Of a stretch of 64,000 bases of DNA, positions 12,770 through 20,119 are shown one piece after another. The DNA is taken from contig CALXPP010000001.1 in the NCBI GenBank assembly GCA_944390345.1, forward strand, positions 20,570 to 84,569, in the 5' to 3' direction. Source of the DNA: an uncultured Clostridia bacterium. Lineage in GTDB: Bacteria > Bacillota > Clostridia > TANB77 > CAG-508. A program made the translations under genes and the position numbers. The notes below the pieces were generated by a model. The model searched no databases, was not told the origin of the DNA, and worked only from the letters and a program-made list of their open reading frames with translations. Each line of letters opens with the position of its first letter. Within the stretch, counting starts at the first letter, position 1.

Positions 12770-13723
12770 ATGAAATTTGTAAAAGTACAAAAGAGTAATC
12801 CCAATATTATAGAATGTACAGAATTAAATAATGATGTATTAGTTAGAAGAATTAATTTAGAAATCTATAATCATATTCAAGTAAGAATTTTAGATAAACA
12901 GTATGCAATACTAATAGAAAAAGGAGAAATTTTAGCCGTTTGTTCTGAAGCAGGAGATTATGAAATAGATTTTGATTTAGAAGATAATTCAGCAAGCTTA
13001 AAAAAATGGAAGTTATACAAAGATGAAAAAACTAAAACTTTACCACTTTCACTAGTGTTTATAAATTTAAAGGAAATTACAGAAAATAAATTTTACTTTA
13101 AGAAACCAATTGAATATGTAGATTGGACAAATTGCTATTATGATGAAAACTTGAAACAAAAACTTCCTTTAAAAACACAGTTCATAGGAGATGGAAAATT
13201 TAATTTTATTATAGAAAATCCTGTATTATTTCTAAATTCTATTCTAGGTATTAGAGAACACTACACAAAACAGGAACTATTAGAGCAGATAAGAAAAATA
13301 GTTGTAAATTCAATAAAATTAGGAATAGATGAATTAGGAGAGGAATATAAATTATCTATAAAACTTGTAAAAAATAAATCCAATGAACTAGAAATTAGAG
13401 TAAGTCAAAACAACTATGATGAAAAATTAGCAAAAAGAGGAATAAAAATTACATATTTTGAAATTACAAATTTTGAAGAATTAAATCAGAGTAAAACAGA
13501 TAACAGTAAAAATAATTTTGAAAAATTGTTTTTACAATTATATAAGGCAAGCAAAAATCCAGAATTTATAGAAGCAAAAAATATAACAGTTAGTATAAAT
13601 GAAGAAGGCGAAATAATTGCAAAAAGATTAGATAATATTTGCAAAAGATGTGGCAGTTTAATAGAAAGTGAAGATAAATATTGCAAAAACTGTGGTGCCA
13701 AAGTTACTGATATATCAATGTAA
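12770..13723 (+). CDS. SPFH-like domain protein with C-terminal zinc ribbon
   Basis: 317-aa ORF ending CKRCGSLIESEDKYCKNCGAKV (CxxC...CxxC); family assignment by recollection only. Confidence 0.55.
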   Translation: MKFVKVQKSNPNIIECTELNNDVLVRRINLEIYNHIQVRILDKQYAILIEKGEILAVCSEAGDYEIDFDLEDNSASLKKWKLYKDEKTKTLPLSLVFINLKEITENKFYFKKPIEYVDWTNCYYDENLKQKLPLKTQFIGDGKFNFIIENPVLFLNSILGIREHYTKQELLEQIRKIVVNSIKLGIDELGEEYKLSIKLVKNKSNELEIRVSQNNYDEKLAKRGIKITYFEITNFEELNQSKTDNSKNNFEKLFLQLYKASKNPEFIEAKNITVSINEEGEIIAKRLDNICKRCGSLIESEDKYCKNCGAKVTDISM

Positions 13724-14141: not shown

Positions 14142-15776
<1,635 letters not shown>

Positions 15777-15791
15777 AATATTTATTAATAA

Positions 15792-15831
15792 AAAGAGATG
15801 TAACAATCAAAGAAAGTTACATCTCTTTTTT
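15792..15831 (+). terminator. rho-independent terminator after groEL
   Basis: aaagagatgtaac...gttacatctcttt hairpin followed by T run. Confidence 0.8.
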
Positions 15832-15849
15832 GCGTTTTTAGAAAACTAA

Positions 15850-15972
15850 TTAGCAACCACAGCCTCTGCCATTATTGTTTCCACAGCAGCAGAAAAGGAT
15901 TATTAAAAGAATTATAATCCATAAGCAGTCATTGTCTAAGAAACCACATCCACAACCTCTATTTTCTGGCAT
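15850..15972 (-). CDS. 40-aa Cys/Gly-rich hydrophobic peptide (YjcZ-like small spore-type peptide?)
   Basis: Below the ORF-track cutoff. GGGAGGG RBS 8 nt before ATG; MPENRGCGCGFLDNDCLWIIILLIILFCCCGNNNGRGCGC then TAA. Confidence 0.5.
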   Translation of the reverse strand: MPENRGCGCGFLDNDCLWIIILLIILFCCCGNNNGRGCGC

Positions 15973-16260
15973 AGTATATTTCCCTCCCTTTTTTATATCT
16001 TTTTTATTTTTTTCTTTTGTATAATACATAGTATGAAAAAAATAAAAAAGTGTTACAAAGTTAATATTATACGGATAGCTATTGATTTGATTTTAAGATA
16101 AAAATTATAAAACGACAAAAAGATATAAAAAACGACAAAAGGTGAAAAAAGAAGAAAAAGTACAAAAAGAGTAAATATTTAGTAAAAAGTTTAATAATTC
16201 AGTTTTTAAAAAAAATAACCTCAACTTGTAGTAAAATTTGTTGCCAGAGGTGATTAATTA

Positions 16261-17196
16261 ATGAAAAAGATTATTAAACTGCAAAAAAGAATGGTAACTT
16301 TTAAAACTATTGCAGAAGACTTTTTGATCTTTAAAAAAAGGCAAATAAAGCAATCTACTTATTATAATTATACTTATAAAATACAGAAATATTTACTACC
16401 AGCCTTTGAAAATTTAAGCTTAGAAGAGATATTAGAATATGATTTTAATAGGTTTAGTGAGCTTTTATTAGAAACTACACAAATCTCTAATAAATTTTTA
16501 AAAGATATTTTATTAGTATTAAAATCAATTTTAAAATTTGCAGAAAAAAAGTATGATGTAAAAATGAAGTTGGATTTAATTAATTTGCCAAGAGTTCGTA
16601 CACATAGCTTGAAAGTATTTTTAGAAAGCGATAAGAGAAAAATAAAAGCATATTGTATGAACTCAGAAAATACCAAAGATATAGGAATTGCTCTATGTTT
16701 ATATACAGGTATGAGAATAGGGGAAATATGTGCTTTAAAATGGGAGGATATTGATTTAAACAAAAGAATAATTTATGTAAGGCATACTTTACAAAGAATC
16801 TATATAGATAAAAAGAATACAAAAATTATAATTGATGCCCCAAAATCAGAAAAAAGCATAAGAAATATTCCTATGTCAAATATGATATATACAAAGCTCA
16901 AAAGTATGAGAGAAAATTTTAGCAAAGATGATTTTTTTCTAACAGGAGATAGCAAAAGCTTTATGGAACCAAGAGGTTATCAATACACCTTTAAAAAAAT
17001 GCTAAAAGAGTGTAAAATTGCAGAAAGAAATTTTCATTGTTTAAGACATACTTTTGCAACAGATTGTATAAGTGTAGGAATGGATGTAAAATCTTTAAGT
17101 GAAATACTAGGACATTCAGATGTGAGTATTACTTTAAATAGATATGTGCATTCATCAGACAAAATTAAAAAGCGCTATTTAGAAAAACTAGCGTAA
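16261..17196 (+). CDS. tyrosine recombinase / phage-type integrase
   Basis: C-terminal catalytic signature (TGMRIGEI, HCLRHTFAT, LGHSDVSITLNRYVH); N-terminal SAM-like core-binding region. Confidence 0.85.
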   Translation: MKKIIKLQKRMVTFKTIAEDFLIFKKRQIKQSTYYNYTYKIQKYLLPAFENLSLEEILEYDFNRFSELLLETTQISNKFLKDILLVLKSILKFAEKKYDVKMKLDLINLPRVRTHSLKVFLESDKRKIKAYCMNSENTKDIGIALCLYTGMRIGEICALKWEDIDLNKRIIYVRHTLQRIYIDKKNTKIIIDAPKSEKSIRNIPMSNMIYTKLKSMRENFSKDDFFLTGDSKSFMEPRGYQYTFKKMLKECKIAERNFHCLRHTFATDCISVGMDVKSLSEILGHSDVSITLNRYVHSSDKIKKRYLEKLA

Positions 17197-17352
17197 AAAT
17201 TTAAAAATCCATAAAAACAATTTTTTATAGAGTAGCTTATTTATTGAGTATTTTTAATAATATTTATTAAAATGCTTTATAAATAAGCTTTTGTTGTTTT
17301 TTATAAAATTTGACATAATTAGAACAAAACTTTACATAATGTAGAAAAATCC

Positions 17353-17381
17353 TTGAAATATTATAAAAAATATGTTATAAT
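17353..17381 (+). promoter_or_regulatory. sigma-A type promoter for the deaminase gene
   Basis: TTGAAA-N17-TATAAT with TG extension (tatgtTATAAT). Confidence 0.55.
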
Positions 17382-17466
17382 CTTAAACTAAGTAGTAGTA
17401 TAAAAATTATAACTTAAATTTTGAATATATAAGTAAAAAAATAATAGTATGGAGGTTTAGTGTTAA

Positions 17467-19956
17467 ATGGAAAAAATGCCAGTTTGGAAAGTGTTTTACT
17501 TAGATAAAGAACAAGACATAAAAGTAAATTTATATAAGAAAAATGAAGATGAATTAGCTTATTGTATAGAAACACCCAACCATAATACTGGAAATTTAAT
17601 TACTAATTTAGCAAAAGTTTGCAAATTAGAAACTCGTCAAAATGAGCACGATAAAAGAATTATTACTGGAATATTACCAGCTAGTTTAAATGCGGATAAT
17701 GAAGAAGTATATATATTTAGACTAGGTGGTATTAAAATTGCAAATATATATGCTAATGGATTAATTGAAATGAAAGCAAAAATACCAGCAATTACTAAAA
17801 TTCTAATGGCACAGACTAAAGACTATAAATTAAGTATAGATAAAACTATAGTAAAATTTTACATATTAAAAAAGGCAAAGTTTAGAACAGATTTACATAC
17901 ACATCTAAATGCAATGCTTACACCAGATATATTAATTGCTTTAGCTATTAAACACCAAATTAGATATCCATTATACTTTATACAAAAATTAAATTTAAAA
18001 ATTACGGATGACCAATCAAAAAAACTAGAAATGTATAGAAAGGCTTTAGAAAAACGCTACGAAAATAGTGACTTAAGAGGAAAAGCTTTTGAAAGAAAAA
18101 TAAAAGATGAGACTTATATAAACTTTGCAGATTTAATATTAAATAACTTAGAAAATGCAGAGGAAAATATAAGAAAAATTAAAAACAGCTTAGTATTAAT
18201 TAAAGATGGTCAGGCAGTTTTCACTAATCTAGATAAATTATATATAGTATATAGATATGTTTTTACAAAAGGAAGAGAAGCAGAAATAAAAGTAAAGTAT
18301 ACTCAAAAACAAATCGATAGTATACCAGATGAATCTGTAAAAGAACATTTAAATCAAATGTTAGAAGATGCAAAACCAGGAAATAAATATGAAAACAATA
18401 ATATACTAAAAGATAAGCTTTTATGGATTTCTAGAGAGTATCAAAAGCAAGGAATTAAGCATGTAGAAATTTCTACAACGGATTTAGTAAAAAAAGGAGA
18501 AAAAGGAGTAGCTTTCCTAAAAACTCTACACGAAATTCTACCTTTAGCAGAAGCAGAAACAGGTGTAGCAATTAGATTTTTGGCAGCTATTCGTAGAGTA
18601 TGGCTTTCTCCAGATGAAATAAGAGAAGCACTAGATGTATTAAAAGCAATGGCTAGAAGTCCTTATGTAGTAGGAAGCGACATAATAGGTGAAGAGATAA
18701 ACGATATTGCAGATTTTAGAGAATTAATTGCAGAGCTTGTAAAATATGCTGTATATGAAGACAACAGCTTTACAATTCAAATTCACGCGGGAGAAAATGA
18801 TGCTTTTAAGGATAATGTATATTCTGCAATTGAATGTGTAAAGGCAGCAATTCCAGAAGGTGCTGAATGTCCTAAGGTTAGAATAGGACATGGTTTATAT
18901 GTAGAAAATCTAAATTTTGAAAAAGGCAAGAAATTAATGGAAGATATGAAAAATATGGGAGTTGTTTTACAATTTCAATTATCTTCAAATGTGCGTTTAA
19001 ATAATTTATCAGATTTACAAAATCATCCTATAAAACAATATTTAGATAGTGGAGTAGCTTGTGTACAAGGCACAGATGGATTTGGAATATATGGTACAGA
19101 CACTTTAGAAGAACAATTAGCTTCTCAAAATTTACTTGACCTAACTAATGAAGACTTTATGAAGATGAGAGCTGTAGAAGATAAAATTTTAGCAGATAAT
19201 GAAAAAGCTTTTAAAGAAAAGTCAGAAGCTTTTGCAAAGTTAATTAAAAATAAATCCTTAGAGCAAGCCATTTTAGATTTAGAAGAAGAAAACTTCAAAA
19301 AGAGCAAAAATAAAAAGATTAAATTTTACTTTAAAAATAATTTAGAAGCTTCAGAAGTATTAAAAGAAAAAGTAGTAGCACTTCCAGAAAATAAATTTCC
19401 AGTAATAATTGCTGGAGGTAGTTTCAATACTAAAGGTAGAGAAACTATTATAAACGAAAGTGCAAAAGCTACTTTAAAAGAATTAATAGACAAACTAGAC
19501 AATAAAAAAGCTTATTTTGTAATAGGACCGAAAATGGAAGGCTATGAAAAAGCAATTTTAGATTTATCTAAAGAGATGAATAAAAAATTTGAAATAAATG
19601 CAATTGTTCCAAAACTATTATCAGAAGAAGAAAAAGAAAAACTAGAATCTAAAGATTTAGATGGAGTGTGTGTTTCAACAGAAACAGAAGAGCTTGGAAT
19701 ATACAAAAGCTTTAACTATGAAATATTTGAAAGAAGAAGTTCAGCAGTAATTGCTTTTGATGGAAATTCTCCAGCTTATAACTTAATACAAGAAGCAAAA
19801 AATGGTAAAGGAAAAGCAAAAATATTTGTAAATTCAGAAAATAATAATTTAAAAGAAAAGGCAAATAGTTTAAATGGATATGTAATTCCTTTCAAATATA
19901 CAGACAGCATAGCAGATAAGCTTTTAAAAGATTATCCAGAGCTTAAGGATAAATAA
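17467..19956 (+). CDS. adenosine-deaminase-fold protein with unknown N-terminal domain and C-terminal LOG/SLOG-like Rossmann domain (829 aa)
   Basis: ADA motifs DLHTHLN, IHAGEN, RIGHG, SSN, GTDGFG. C-terminal VIIAGGS ... YFVIGPKMEGYE ... INAIVP ... AVIAFDGNSPAYNLIQE parallels LOG-family GGS ... GGGxxG ... IGVIP ... PGGxGTxxE. Confidence 0.7.
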   Translation: MEKMPVWKVFYLDKEQDIKVNLYKKNEDELAYCIETPNHNTGNLITNLAKVCKLETRQNEHDKRIITGILPASLNADNEEVYIFRLGGIKIANIYANGLIEMKAKIPAITKILMAQTKDYKLSIDKTIVKFYILKKAKFRTDLHTHLNAMLTPDILIALAIKHQIRYPLYFIQKLNLKITDDQSKKLEMYRKALEKRYENSDLRGKAFERKIKDETYINFADLILNNLENAEENIRKIKNSLVLIKDGQAVFTNLDKLYIVYRYVFTKGREAEIKVKYTQKQIDSIPDESVKEHLNQMLEDAKPGNKYENNNILKDKLLWISREYQKQGIKHVEISTTDLVKKGEKGVAFLKTLHEILPLAEAETGVAIRFLAAIRRVWLSPDEIREALDVLKAMARSPYVVGSDIIGEEINDIADFRELIAELVKYAVYEDNSFTIQIHAGENDAFKDNVYSAIECVKAAIPEGAECPKVRIGHGLYVENLNFEKGKKLMEDMKNMGVVLQFQLSSNVRLNNLSDLQNHPIKQYLDSGVACVQGTDGFGIYGTDTLEEQLASQNLLDLTNEDFMKMRAVEDKILADNEKAFKEKSEAFAKLIKNKSLEQAILDLEEENFKKSKNKKIKFYFKNNLEASEVLKEKVVALPENKFPVIIAGGSFNTKGRETIINESAKATLKELIDKLDNKKAYFVIGPKMEGYEKAILDLSKEMNKKFEINAIVPKLLSEEEKEKLESKDLDGVCVSTETEELGIYKSFNYEIFERRSSAVIAFDGNSPAYNLIQEAKNGKGKAKIFVNSENNNLKEKANSLNGYVIPFKYTDSIADKLLKDYPELKDK

Positions 19957-20032
19957 AATATTATAAATTAGATAAAGCTAAAAAATACCTTAAAATTTAG
20001 ATTTAAAGTCTAAAAGAGAGGTATTTTTTTAA

Positions 20033-20061
20033 TTGACTTTTTTATAAGCTTTGTATAAAAT
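20033..20061 (+). promoter_or_regulatory. sigma-A type promoter for the ART-like operon
   Basis: TTGACT-N17-TAAAAT. Confidence 0.5.
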
Positions 20062-20119
20062 ATTTTTATATAGATAGCAGGAAATTTATTTTTTATTTAA
20101 GTCTTGTAGAAATTAATTT

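Follow-up and report, generated by a model that had tools for sequence, protein, structure and literature searches.

A three-domain deaminase of uncultured gut Clostridia with an adenosine deaminase core and a predicted SLOG-like domain

Regulated deamination of ATP and dATP, as carried out by RdrB of the RADAR system, by Cad1 and by Kongming, was recognised only recently and has, to our knowledge, so far always depended on a separate sensor or signal generator. Cad1 (also called CAAD) is the adenosine deaminase (ADA) of type III CRISPR systems, carries a fused CARF domain and converts ATP to ITP. RdrB is a dodecameric ATP/dATP deaminase that works together with the ATPase RdrA. In ThsA, a SIR2 NADase effector and a SLOG domain share one chain, and the SLOG fold has been shown to act as a sensor in immunity (PMC11204291). 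Here we analysed the gene of an 829-residue deaminase in a 64,000-nucleotide stretch of the genome of an uncultured Clostridia bacterium (contig CALXPP010000001.1, hereafter the window). The protein combines an ADA core, a C-terminal domain with a SLOG-like predicted fold and an orphan N-terminal domain. The same three parts had been proposed in an earlier note on this DNA from the letters alone; Pfam, structure prediction with fold comparison, and the lack of any match for the N-terminal part now support them. Full-text searches on SLOG with ADA and on ATP-deaminase defence yielded papers on Cad1/CAAD, RADAR, Kongming and Thoeris only, and this architecture is described in none of them. We favour, with a probability of roughly 0.45, a self-contained, allosterically gated adenine-nucleotide deaminase that would use the SLOG-like part as a ligand or assembly module in a lineage-specific control of the nucleotide pool.

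The forward-strand open reading frame (ORF) of the deaminase is the only long one across its coordinates (Table 1), the opposite strand being closed. Its translation contains all strings quoted in the earlier note, namely FRTDLHTHLN, IQIHAGEND, RIGHGLY, LSSNVRLN and QGTDGFG and, in the C-terminal part, VIIAGGS, YFVIGPKMEGYE, INAIVP and AVIAFDGNSPAYNLIQE. Residues ~138-590 are a genuine ADA-superfamily core, far above chance: the Pfam model PF00962 (A_deaminase) matched with E = 2.1e-20 and 73.5 bits against a cut-off of 27, in two stretches at aa 141-194 and 323-576. We scored residue conservation in an alignment of 81 orthologues, where the zinc ligands H144, H146 (forming HxH), H440 and D537, the catalytic E443 and also H475 were invariant (81/81). 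ADA structure alignments (3ou8, 3rys) placed LHtHLn opposite LHLHLe; with the P. vivax ADA, hagEnd stood opposite hagEdv, righg opposite righg and gtDGfg opposite nsDDpg. Searches of PDB sequences with the deaminase found classical adenosine deaminases only, the Plasmodium enzyme being the best, and the JGI annotation of the homologues is 'adenosine deaminase'. The earlier note had nevertheless set the protein apart from housekeeping Add, and here it was right: the best of nine NCBIfam Add equivalogs (TIGR01430, PRK09358) reached 63.9 bits against a cut-off of 216.55 (range of the cut-offs 216-549), and both adenosine-specific aspartates are replaced. The AMP_deaminase model PF19326 gave no match to the 829-aa protein in the Pfam scan either.

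In canonical adenosine deaminases, D19 (mouse numbering) contacts the ribose 5'-OH and D296 the purine N7. The position of Asp19, directly after HxHL, is N148 in our protein (N in 71 of the 81 orthologues, otherwise H, S, Y or F), and that of Asp296, the second Asp of TDD, is G538, which is glycine in 81/81; divergent relatives carry TDG too. A 'full ADA signature', as claimed before, is thus present for the catalytic and zinc motifs, but it was overstated with regard to the aspartates of HxHLD and TDDP. The same two positions are substituted in TaqCad1, as G264 and N549; this enzyme turns over ATP, not adenosine, AMP or ADP, and reversion at these positions abolishes the ATP activity (PMC12669630). 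Because the D19 and D296 positions are altered as in the ATP-specific Cad1, we expect by analogy a non-canonical and probably 5'-phosphorylated substrate.

The Cad1 model was also the sole PADLOC match of the deaminase (E = 2.2e-15), over profile positions 261-559 of 605, its ADA part. Like Cad1, our protein joins an ADA core and a Rossmannoid sensor-type domain in one chain. The N-terminal CARF domain of Cad1, however, was not recovered, the sensor-type domain here being C-terminal and SLOG-like, and Cad1 has neither the orphan N-terminal domain nor the barrel insertion of ~105 residues described below. Furthermore, the present gene is chromosomal and lineage-wide and has no CRISPR-Cas neighbourhood. 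Eukaryotic AMP deaminases provide another comparison, with their ~800 residues, an ADA-fold catalytic domain, large regulatory extensions, a 5'-phosphorylated substrate and allosteric control by nucleotides. They keep the TDDP aspartate pair, however, and their regulatory domains are unrelated to the deaminase studied here.

For the C-terminal domain, an AlphaFold2 model from 14 sequences (mean predicted local distance difference test, pLDDT, 77.9; predicted TM-score, pTM, 0.76) gave a seven-stranded alpha/beta Rossmannoid. Among the 20 top Foldseek matches of this model in the PDB, 19 were N-terminal regions of TRPM8 or TRPM2, LOG proteins or molybdenum cofactor (Moco) carrier protein, with E-values from 7e-4 to 1e-2 and probabilities of 0.9-1.0. 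The top match was the TRPM8 N-terminal region (E = 7e-4), while LOG and Moco carrier matches had target-normalised TM-scores of 0.55-0.62, those to the LOG family at a probability of ~1.0. The LOG structures matched come from plants and bacteria (1ydh, 5its, 5zbj, 5zbk, 5zbl, 7w2i, 3sbx and 1t35), several of them AMP-bound. Following the published SLOG classification, we take the matches to TRPM MHR1/2, LOG and Moco carrier protein all to belong to the SLOG superfamily, which at the fold level comprises LOG, DprA/Smf, MoCF-BD, LSDAT/TRPM and ThsA-STALD. An unrelated C-terminal fold, which according to the earlier note would have spoken against its proposal, was thus not encountered. With the SLOG sensors (ThsA; MHR1/2 of TRPM2 and TRPM8), the protein shares these fold matches and, as in ThsA, the placement of an effector and a SLOG-type domain in one chain. 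It differs from ThsA in that the effector is a deaminase and not a SIR2 NADase, and that neither a TIR protein (ThsB) nor another signal synthase is found nearby.

The motifs of the C-terminal domain follow one another as AGGS after strand 1, IGxKxxGxEK after strand 2, IPK after strand 3, FERR closing the helix before strand 5 and DGNSP..NL.QE after strand 5. This parallels the order GGS, GGGxxGLMG, IP, HERK and PGGxGTxxE in LOG proteins (YvdD, PpnN core), with Gly-rich loops after strands 1 and 2; strand 3 is followed by a proline and strand 5 by an acidic helix. The LOG-like motif order put forward in the earlier note therefore stands as topology, the motifs following equivalent strands, but it is undetectable as sequence homology. 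No Pfam model, Lysine_decarbox/LOG (PF03641) included, matched aa 600-829 at E<=10, PADLOC did not recognise this region, and at the same permissive threshold the NCBIfam LOG model TIGR00730 did not match the 829-aa protein. PGGxGTxxE is missing from the protein, where the LOG-equivalent loop reads DGNSPAYNLIQE with another spacing to the acid; for this loop, FDGNSPAYNLIQE in our protein, the divergent members have FDGYQEAEYLVAD or YDSAHPAKNLVSD. Comparison by hhalign of two family alignments with an alignment of four LOG sequences, which we had recovered from the PDB search output, gave a probability of 0.1-0.2%, and profile searches of PDB sequences with two C-terminal alignments found no LOG. 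On these grounds we rejected membership in the LOG family.

As the fold matches come without LOG membership at the sequence level, we file the C-terminal domain as SLOG-like at the level of the fold, an assignment of weak to moderate strength that follows from the predicted model. Its family-wide invariants, divergent members included, are the AGGS loop (aa 649-652), G687, E694, Y746-K747 and D/E776. The main clade keeps R756, R757 and E776 without exception, but the Arg pair (ERR) changes to FSQ, FSK or FNK in divergent members, and the candidate catalytic Arg is accordingly not a family-wide feature. We consider a module for ligand binding or assembly more likely than a glycosidase of the LOG type; a ligand-sensing SLOG domain, the other option of the earlier note, is plausible, and the conserved polar residues together with the Gly-rich loop suggest that a ligand would most likely be of the nucleotide type.

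The N-terminal domain is the best conserved part of the protein, with a mean column conservation of 0.79, and it is still recognisable in the divergent members P0319, P0348 and L085. Its hallmarks are FYLDKE.DI, TPNH.TGNLITNLA and IPAI.K.LM.QTK.Y. The AlphaFold2 model (pLDDT 73.2, pTM 0.67) found nothing significant with Foldseek in the PDB (best E 0.26, TM<0.33) or in BFVD (best E 0.065), and hidden Markov model (HMM) searches of Pfam, PADLOC and PHROGs gave no match, which agrees with the earlier remark that this domain is unrecognisable. A resemblance to type III secretion chaperones was considered and rejected, the fold matches being weak (E>0.3). The insertion in the ADA barrel amounts to 128 residues between PF00962 profile positions 57 and 79; it holds the conserved DETYINFADLILNN and KDGQAVFTNLEK and has a mean conservation of 0.75. 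The linker in front of the SLOG-like domain is far more variable (Table 1), and residues 13-24 of the C-terminal model, which belong to it, have low pLDDT.

These two elements are reminiscent of RdrB, likewise an ADA of ~800-900 residues with an N-terminal extension of ~140-150 residues before HxH and a large insertion that splits the barrel. Our insertion takes the position of RdrB 'insertion 2' as described in PMC9994260, and the catalytic residues of RdrB, H152/H154...H498/E501/H530, fall at positions similar to H144/H146...H440/E443/H475 here (PMC9994260). Insertion 3 of RdrB, after the last catalytic His, is however missing, only 62 residues separating H475 and D537, no RdrA accompanies the gene, and RdrB lacks the SLOG-like domain. 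The RdrB model of PADLOC had no match even at E<=10, and we rejected RdrB membership.

Table 1. Features of the deaminase gene and of its surroundings in the window (aa, amino acids of the respective protein)
Feature	Position	Strand	Remark
Promoter-like site TTGAAA-17-TG-TATAAT (extended -10)	17353..17381	+	~85 nt 5' of start codon
Shine-Dalgarno GGAGG	17452..17456	+	10 nt 5' of ATG; direct sequence reading
Three-domain deaminase ORF	17467..19956	+	829 aa plus stop, ATG start; homologues of full length have 820-842 aa and are 60-100% identical
N-terminal orphan domain (aa 1-137)	17467..17877	+	Three strands, helix, four strands, helix (AlphaFold2 prediction)
ADA core, first segment (aa 138-194)	17878..18048	+	PF00962 profile positions 3-57; H144, H146, N148
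ADA-barrel insertion, family-specific (aa ~195-322)	18049..18432	+	~105 residues beyond the Pfam model
ADA core, second segment (aa 323-590)	18433..19236	+	Pfam aa 323-576; H440, E443, H475, D537, G538
Variable, partly helical linker (aa 591-640)	19237..19386	+	Mean conservation 0.59; just 4% of columns conserved to 95%
C-terminal SLOG-like Rossmannoid domain (aa 641-829)	19387..19953	+	AlphaFold2 model, seven strands
Tyrosine recombinase (Phage_integrase and SAM-like N-terminal domain, PHROG integrase)	16261..17196	+	Between groEL and deaminase
599-aa protein	20120-21919	+	Directly downstream of deaminase; ADP-ribosyltransferase identity unsupported by Pfam, PADLOC, PHROG and PDB sequence searches
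C-terminal ~120-aa module of 599-aa protein (aa ~471-599)	21530-21916	+	Recurs in 14 other species
Peptidase_C26/GATase (class-I glutamine amidotransferase)	22167-22865		In the variable slot between deaminase and rpmF
62-aa ORF (rpmF)	23024-23212		Corresponds to a gene with Pfam Ribosomal_L32p in L087
165-aa ORF, dCMP/cytidine-deaminase-fold protein	23408-23905		Part of the conserved downstream synteny

Relatives of the deaminase are encoded in at least 519 species-representative genomes; the scan used one genome per GTDB species, and the host count is a lower bound. The 80 genomes listed are all metagenome-assembled genomes of uncultured gut Clostridia/Clostridiales (one titled only 'uncultured bacterium'), and the hosts among the matches listed include Clostridium sp. 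CAG:389, Ca. Scatovivens and Ca. Merdicola. An exhaustive HMMER search of 1.84 billion representative proteins with a C-terminal profile gave 184 clusters only, mostly contig-truncated fragments. Ten divergent matches were scanned: A_deaminase was found in the near-full-length P0319, P0342, P0348 and P0350 and in three shorter ones, and P0354, P0365 and P0376 had no Pfam match, P0354 following directly on a separate ADA ORF of 700 aa. In every full-length member that we examined, the C-terminal domain was thus joined to ADA or lay next to it, unlike in the LOG family. As divergent full-length matches, too, carry or adjoin ADA, the fusion is close to obligate.

The deaminases of the two closest species (loci L002 and L003) share 88% identity with ours, close to the values for CTP synthase (89%) and EngA (90%). 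The window is AT-rich chromosomal DNA (26.5% G+C) without a GC deviation around the deaminase gene, which is flanked on both sides by housekeeping genes (CTP synthase, groES/groEL, engA, plsY, tRNA genes). Phage and plasmid collections contained no full-length relatives, only partial ADA-core matches, and IMG/VR contained none. Broad occurrence, shared synteny, housekeeping-like identity, GC content and the absence of phage or plasmid relatives together indicate vertical inheritance, with strong purifying selection in all three domains. The flanking gaps are at least 78 nt on both sides of the gene in most of the 81 orthologues, which points to a monocistronic gene, and the promoter-like site in the window fits these gaps. 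This site scored highest in the region with 11 of 12 matches, a match to consensus only; the next gene downstream has a promoter-like site of its own. Rfam searches at gathering and E-value thresholds found no riboswitch or other cis-regulatory RNA upstream of the deaminase gene.

No conserved partner gene emerged from ORF clustering of the 81 main-clade loci, where the commonest neighbour at +1 occurred in 13 loci and the commonest at -1 in 10. Cas-like genes were absent from the annotated window neighbours and from the recurrent neighbour clusters of the 81 loci. Neither PADLOC nor Pfam detected a TIR protein (ThsB) among the window neighbours, and neighbours vary across the 81 loci. The genes adjacent in the window, the integrase and the gene of the 599-aa protein, include no RdrA-type ATPase, the latter having no ATPase match, and no conserved neighbouring enzyme was found that could make an ADP-ribose (ADPR)-type signal. 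A guanine-deaminase-like gene precedes the deaminase in ~10 loci and dCMP-deaminase genes are frequent neighbours too, but the homologues do not lie consistently in purine-salvage operons, an arrangement which the earlier note had named as evidence against its proposal. Other main-clade neighbours were genes of RNase Y, Ffh, ClpB-like, HtrA and M23 peptidase proteins. The downstream order of a 62-aa L32 protein, dCMP deaminase, PTPS-related membrane protein, EngA and PlsY was shared by ~17 loci; the 165-aa deaminase-fold protein of the window is presumably ComEB-like.

One synteny group has, upstream of the deaminase, a gene for a Ham1-like non-canonical NTP (ITP/XTP) pyrophosphatase in five loci (L087, L031, L035, L038, L067) and one for a RelA/SpoT-type (RelQ-type) small alarmone synthetase in ten (L087 and nine main-clade loci). 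These genes lie 0.2-5 kb upstream (1727-3193 in L087), sometimes with an HD-domain protein between. A Ham1-like ITPase would fit a route from ATP over ITP to IMP, and the synthetase would fit an alarmone as ligand. Together with the guanine-deaminase-like neighbour, these genes may hint at nucleotide metabolism.

In the window itself, a tyrosine recombinase precedes the deaminase; L002 and L003 are the only loci with a counterpart at the equivalent spot. The stretch from 15700 to 23500, around integrase, deaminase and the 599-aa protein, showed no att-like direct repeats but only short, low-identity AT-rich matches. The 599-aa protein has a full-length homologue in L002 only, at 36% identity as against 88% for the deaminase there, and is therefore fast-evolving. 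In its N-terminal ~200 residues we noticed by eye strings of the type R / S-T-S / E-x-E (LARG, FFSTSTRE, NEEEIILAPF) that resemble those of ADP-ribosyltransferase toxins of the R-S-E type; a long region rich in Lys and Glu, similar to a coiled coil, comes next. We did not adopt an identity as ADP-ribosyltransferase, since the searches listed in Table 1 gave it no support. The C-terminal module forms the core of proteins of ~184-243 aa whose genes directly follow that of the deaminase in 14 other species (blastp E 1e-13 to 1e-18; loci L011, L015, L028, L029, L031, L033, L035, L038, L042, L051, L052, L053, L073 and L075, one synteny group). The slot between the deaminase and rpmF (19957-23023) is hypervariable: in the window it is taken up by the 599-aa protein, a protein of 82 aa and the class-I glutamine amidotransferase, in L002 a homologue of the 599-aa protein, in L004 a different protein of 448 aa with an amidotransferase, and in L003 it is empty. 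Further upstream, between CTP synthase and groES, a gene for an SPFH/Band-7 protein with C-terminal zinc ribbons (12770-13723, forward strand) is 69% identical in L002/L003, compared with 89-95% for its neighbours.

Five divergent members, L082-L086 (P0348, P0319, P0350, P0342 and P0354), lie on contigs of 25-28% G+C and have another genomic setting. On four of the five contigs the ADA/SLOG gene stands between two genes, X and Y, with tight or overlapping spacing; L085 has X without Y. X encodes ~290-336 aa (156-161 aa in L082 and L086), and its N-terminus has a sub-threshold resemblance to zinc-dependent phospholipase C (Zn_dep_PLPC, E=0.03); Y encodes ~156 aa. The contig of L083 adds a Mob_Pre relaxase, TnpV and DUF6414, and L084 another paralogue of Y as well as a protein of 907 aa that weakly matches a DEAD helicase. 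Homologues of X were found neither in the window nor in the main-clade loci searched (L001-L083), and for Y the main clade gave homologues in just two loci, L019 and L038, at a distance of 5-6 kb to the deaminase. The X-ADA/SLOG-Y cassette may be an undescribed mobile system; it suggests an accessory or conflict-type origin, or offshoot, of the family and keeps a role in immunity under consideration. Two divergent deaminases are split, in L085 (1246-4453) into the N-terminal domain with the start of ADA and then the remainder, and in L086 (5894-8786) into ADA and then the SLOG-like domain. L087, which has main-clade synteny, encodes the deaminase as overlapping ORFs of 514 and 344 aa (3509-6035). 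In all three cases the split may be natural, mark a frameshifted pseudogene or stem from an error in assembly.

How could such a protein work? By analogy to Cad1, the ADA TIM barrel with its intact zinc and catalytic residues would strip the 6-amino group of adenine nucleotides, not of free adenosine, and convert ATP or dATP, possibly AMP, to ITP, dITP or IMP. The SLOG-like domain, with its AGGS loop and invariant polar residues, would most likely bind a nucleotide-type ligand, oligomerise, or both, and thereby gate the core. Assembly would probably rest with the N-terminal domain and the barrel insertion, just as RdrB uses its N-terminal extension and insertion 2. The deaminase of this genome would work by itself, served by a separate promoter and lacking any conserved partner. 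In the best reading of the data, it is not a LOG enzyme, Cad1, RdrB or a housekeeping Add. Being the stand-alone, vertically inherited and lineage-wide product of a chromosomal gene, it would rather serve control of the adenine/inosine pool, related to stress or salvage, than mobile defence.

Several observations weigh against such a gated nucleotide deaminase in pool control. The substituting residues are N and G here but G and N in Cad1, which makes the comparison one of position and not of identity. The SLOG assignment comes from one medium-confidence model with weak Foldseek E-values (7e-4 to 1e-2) and is not backed by sequence, and SLOG sensors of the ThsA type were not among the top 50 Foldseek matches in the PDB. 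As all loci were seeded by the deaminase gene itself, its universality in the lineage could not be shown. The neighbourhood with Ham1, alarmone synthetase and HD-domain genes occurs in 5-10 of 82 loci from a single synteny group and may reflect descent only. The tyrosine recombinase and the fast-evolving, variable gene which flank the deaminase in the window, and the mobile-element-like cassettes of the divergent relatives, would fit a role in conflict.

The latter points lead to the alternative that survives best, although we consider it rather unlikely: the protein could be a single-chain effector of the Cad1/RdrB kind against phages or other mobile elements. Its SLOG-like domain would sense a nucleotide signal of infection, as the SLOG domain of ThsA senses isomers of cyclic ADPR, and the conversion of ATP/dATP to ITP/dITP would arrest growth; the chromosomal main clade would then be a domesticated, fixed version of the mobile three-gene system. 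Such a role would agree with the Cad1 ADA model as the only match in the defence database, the alteration of the same two active-site positions as in Cad1, the RdrB-like N-terminal extension and insertion, and the established use of SLOG in immune sensing (PMC11204291). The cassettes on AT-rich contigs, one of them with relaxase, TnpV and DUF6414, and, in the window, the integrase upstream and the variable gene with its toxin-like motif (by eye) downstream would fit as well. However, a conserved signal-generating partner (TIR, cyclase, Cas10 or RdrA-like ATPase) is missing nearby, and apart from the distant Y homologues in L019 and L038, neither X nor Y accompanies any main-clade ADA gene searched. 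An occurrence in at least 519 species genomes, housekeeping neighbours and a housekeeping-like conservation in close relatives are atypical of patchily distributed defence genes, and relatives on phages, plasmids or viral contigs, as well as a match to the RdrB model, were not obtained.

A bifunctional catabolic enzyme, in which the ADA core would turn AMP or N6-substituted AMP into IMP and a C-terminal phosphoribohydrolase of the LOG type would release the base and ribose-5-phosphate, appears improbable to us. The Foldseek matches to bona fide LOG enzymes, AMP complexes among them, the mirrored order of GGS, G-rich segment, P, ERR and DG..E, the invariance of R756, R757 and E776 in the main clade, and the frequent guanine-deaminase-like and dCMP-deaminase neighbours are in line with it. 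The option of a LOG N-glycosidase, left open in the earlier note, was nevertheless not borne out by the HMM, motif, hhalign (0.1-0.2%) and PDB profile results given above, and the arginines of ERR are lost in divergent members, whereas the AGGS loop and YK are kept. A decorated housekeeping Add of purine salvage, with extra domains for stability or oligomerisation only, is still harder to believe despite the classical adenosine deaminases among the top sequence matches, the JGI label and the vertical, chromosomal inheritance, since 64 bits stand against equivalog cut-offs of 216-549, both substrate-contacting aspartates are replaced, with G538 invariant, such changes accompany the loss of adenosine activity in Cad1 (PMC12669630), and ~480 extra residues as conserved as the catalytic core are hard to explain as decoration.

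A gated adenine-nucleotide deaminase, if confirmed, would join the nucleotide deaminases fused to a sensor and bring with it a SLOG-like domain family not described before and an N-terminal part whose fold has no known relatives. We may go a step further, on tentative grounds and with some doubt, and picture SLOG-ADA as an unrecognised class of one-chain, nucleotide-signal-gated ATP/dATP deaminases that would have come from the mobile X-ADA/SLOG-Y cassette and become fixed in the core genome of a small-genome lineage of gut Clostridia. There it could act as an alarm-responsive brake on the adenine nucleotide pool, triggered by a nucleotide of stress or infection (e.g. a RelQ-type alarmone or an ADPR derivative), and a Ham1-type ITPase would clear the product.

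In conclusion, with the SLOG-like and the orphan N-terminal domain the same catalytic core would be wired in a third way, beside those of the ATP/dATP deaminases described so far. Unlike RdrB, Cad1 and Kongming, the protein would be encoded by a stand-alone gene, spread across hundreds of abundant uncultured Clostridia of the human and animal gut. If the substrate is indeed a nucleotide, the deaminase may supply a lacking step between adenine and guanine nucleotides in these reduced genomes, or represent an immune effector that was domesticated. In either case it gives an experimental handle on an unstudied lineage, on a new family of putatively ligand-binding SLOG-like domains and on a domain without known fold relatives.

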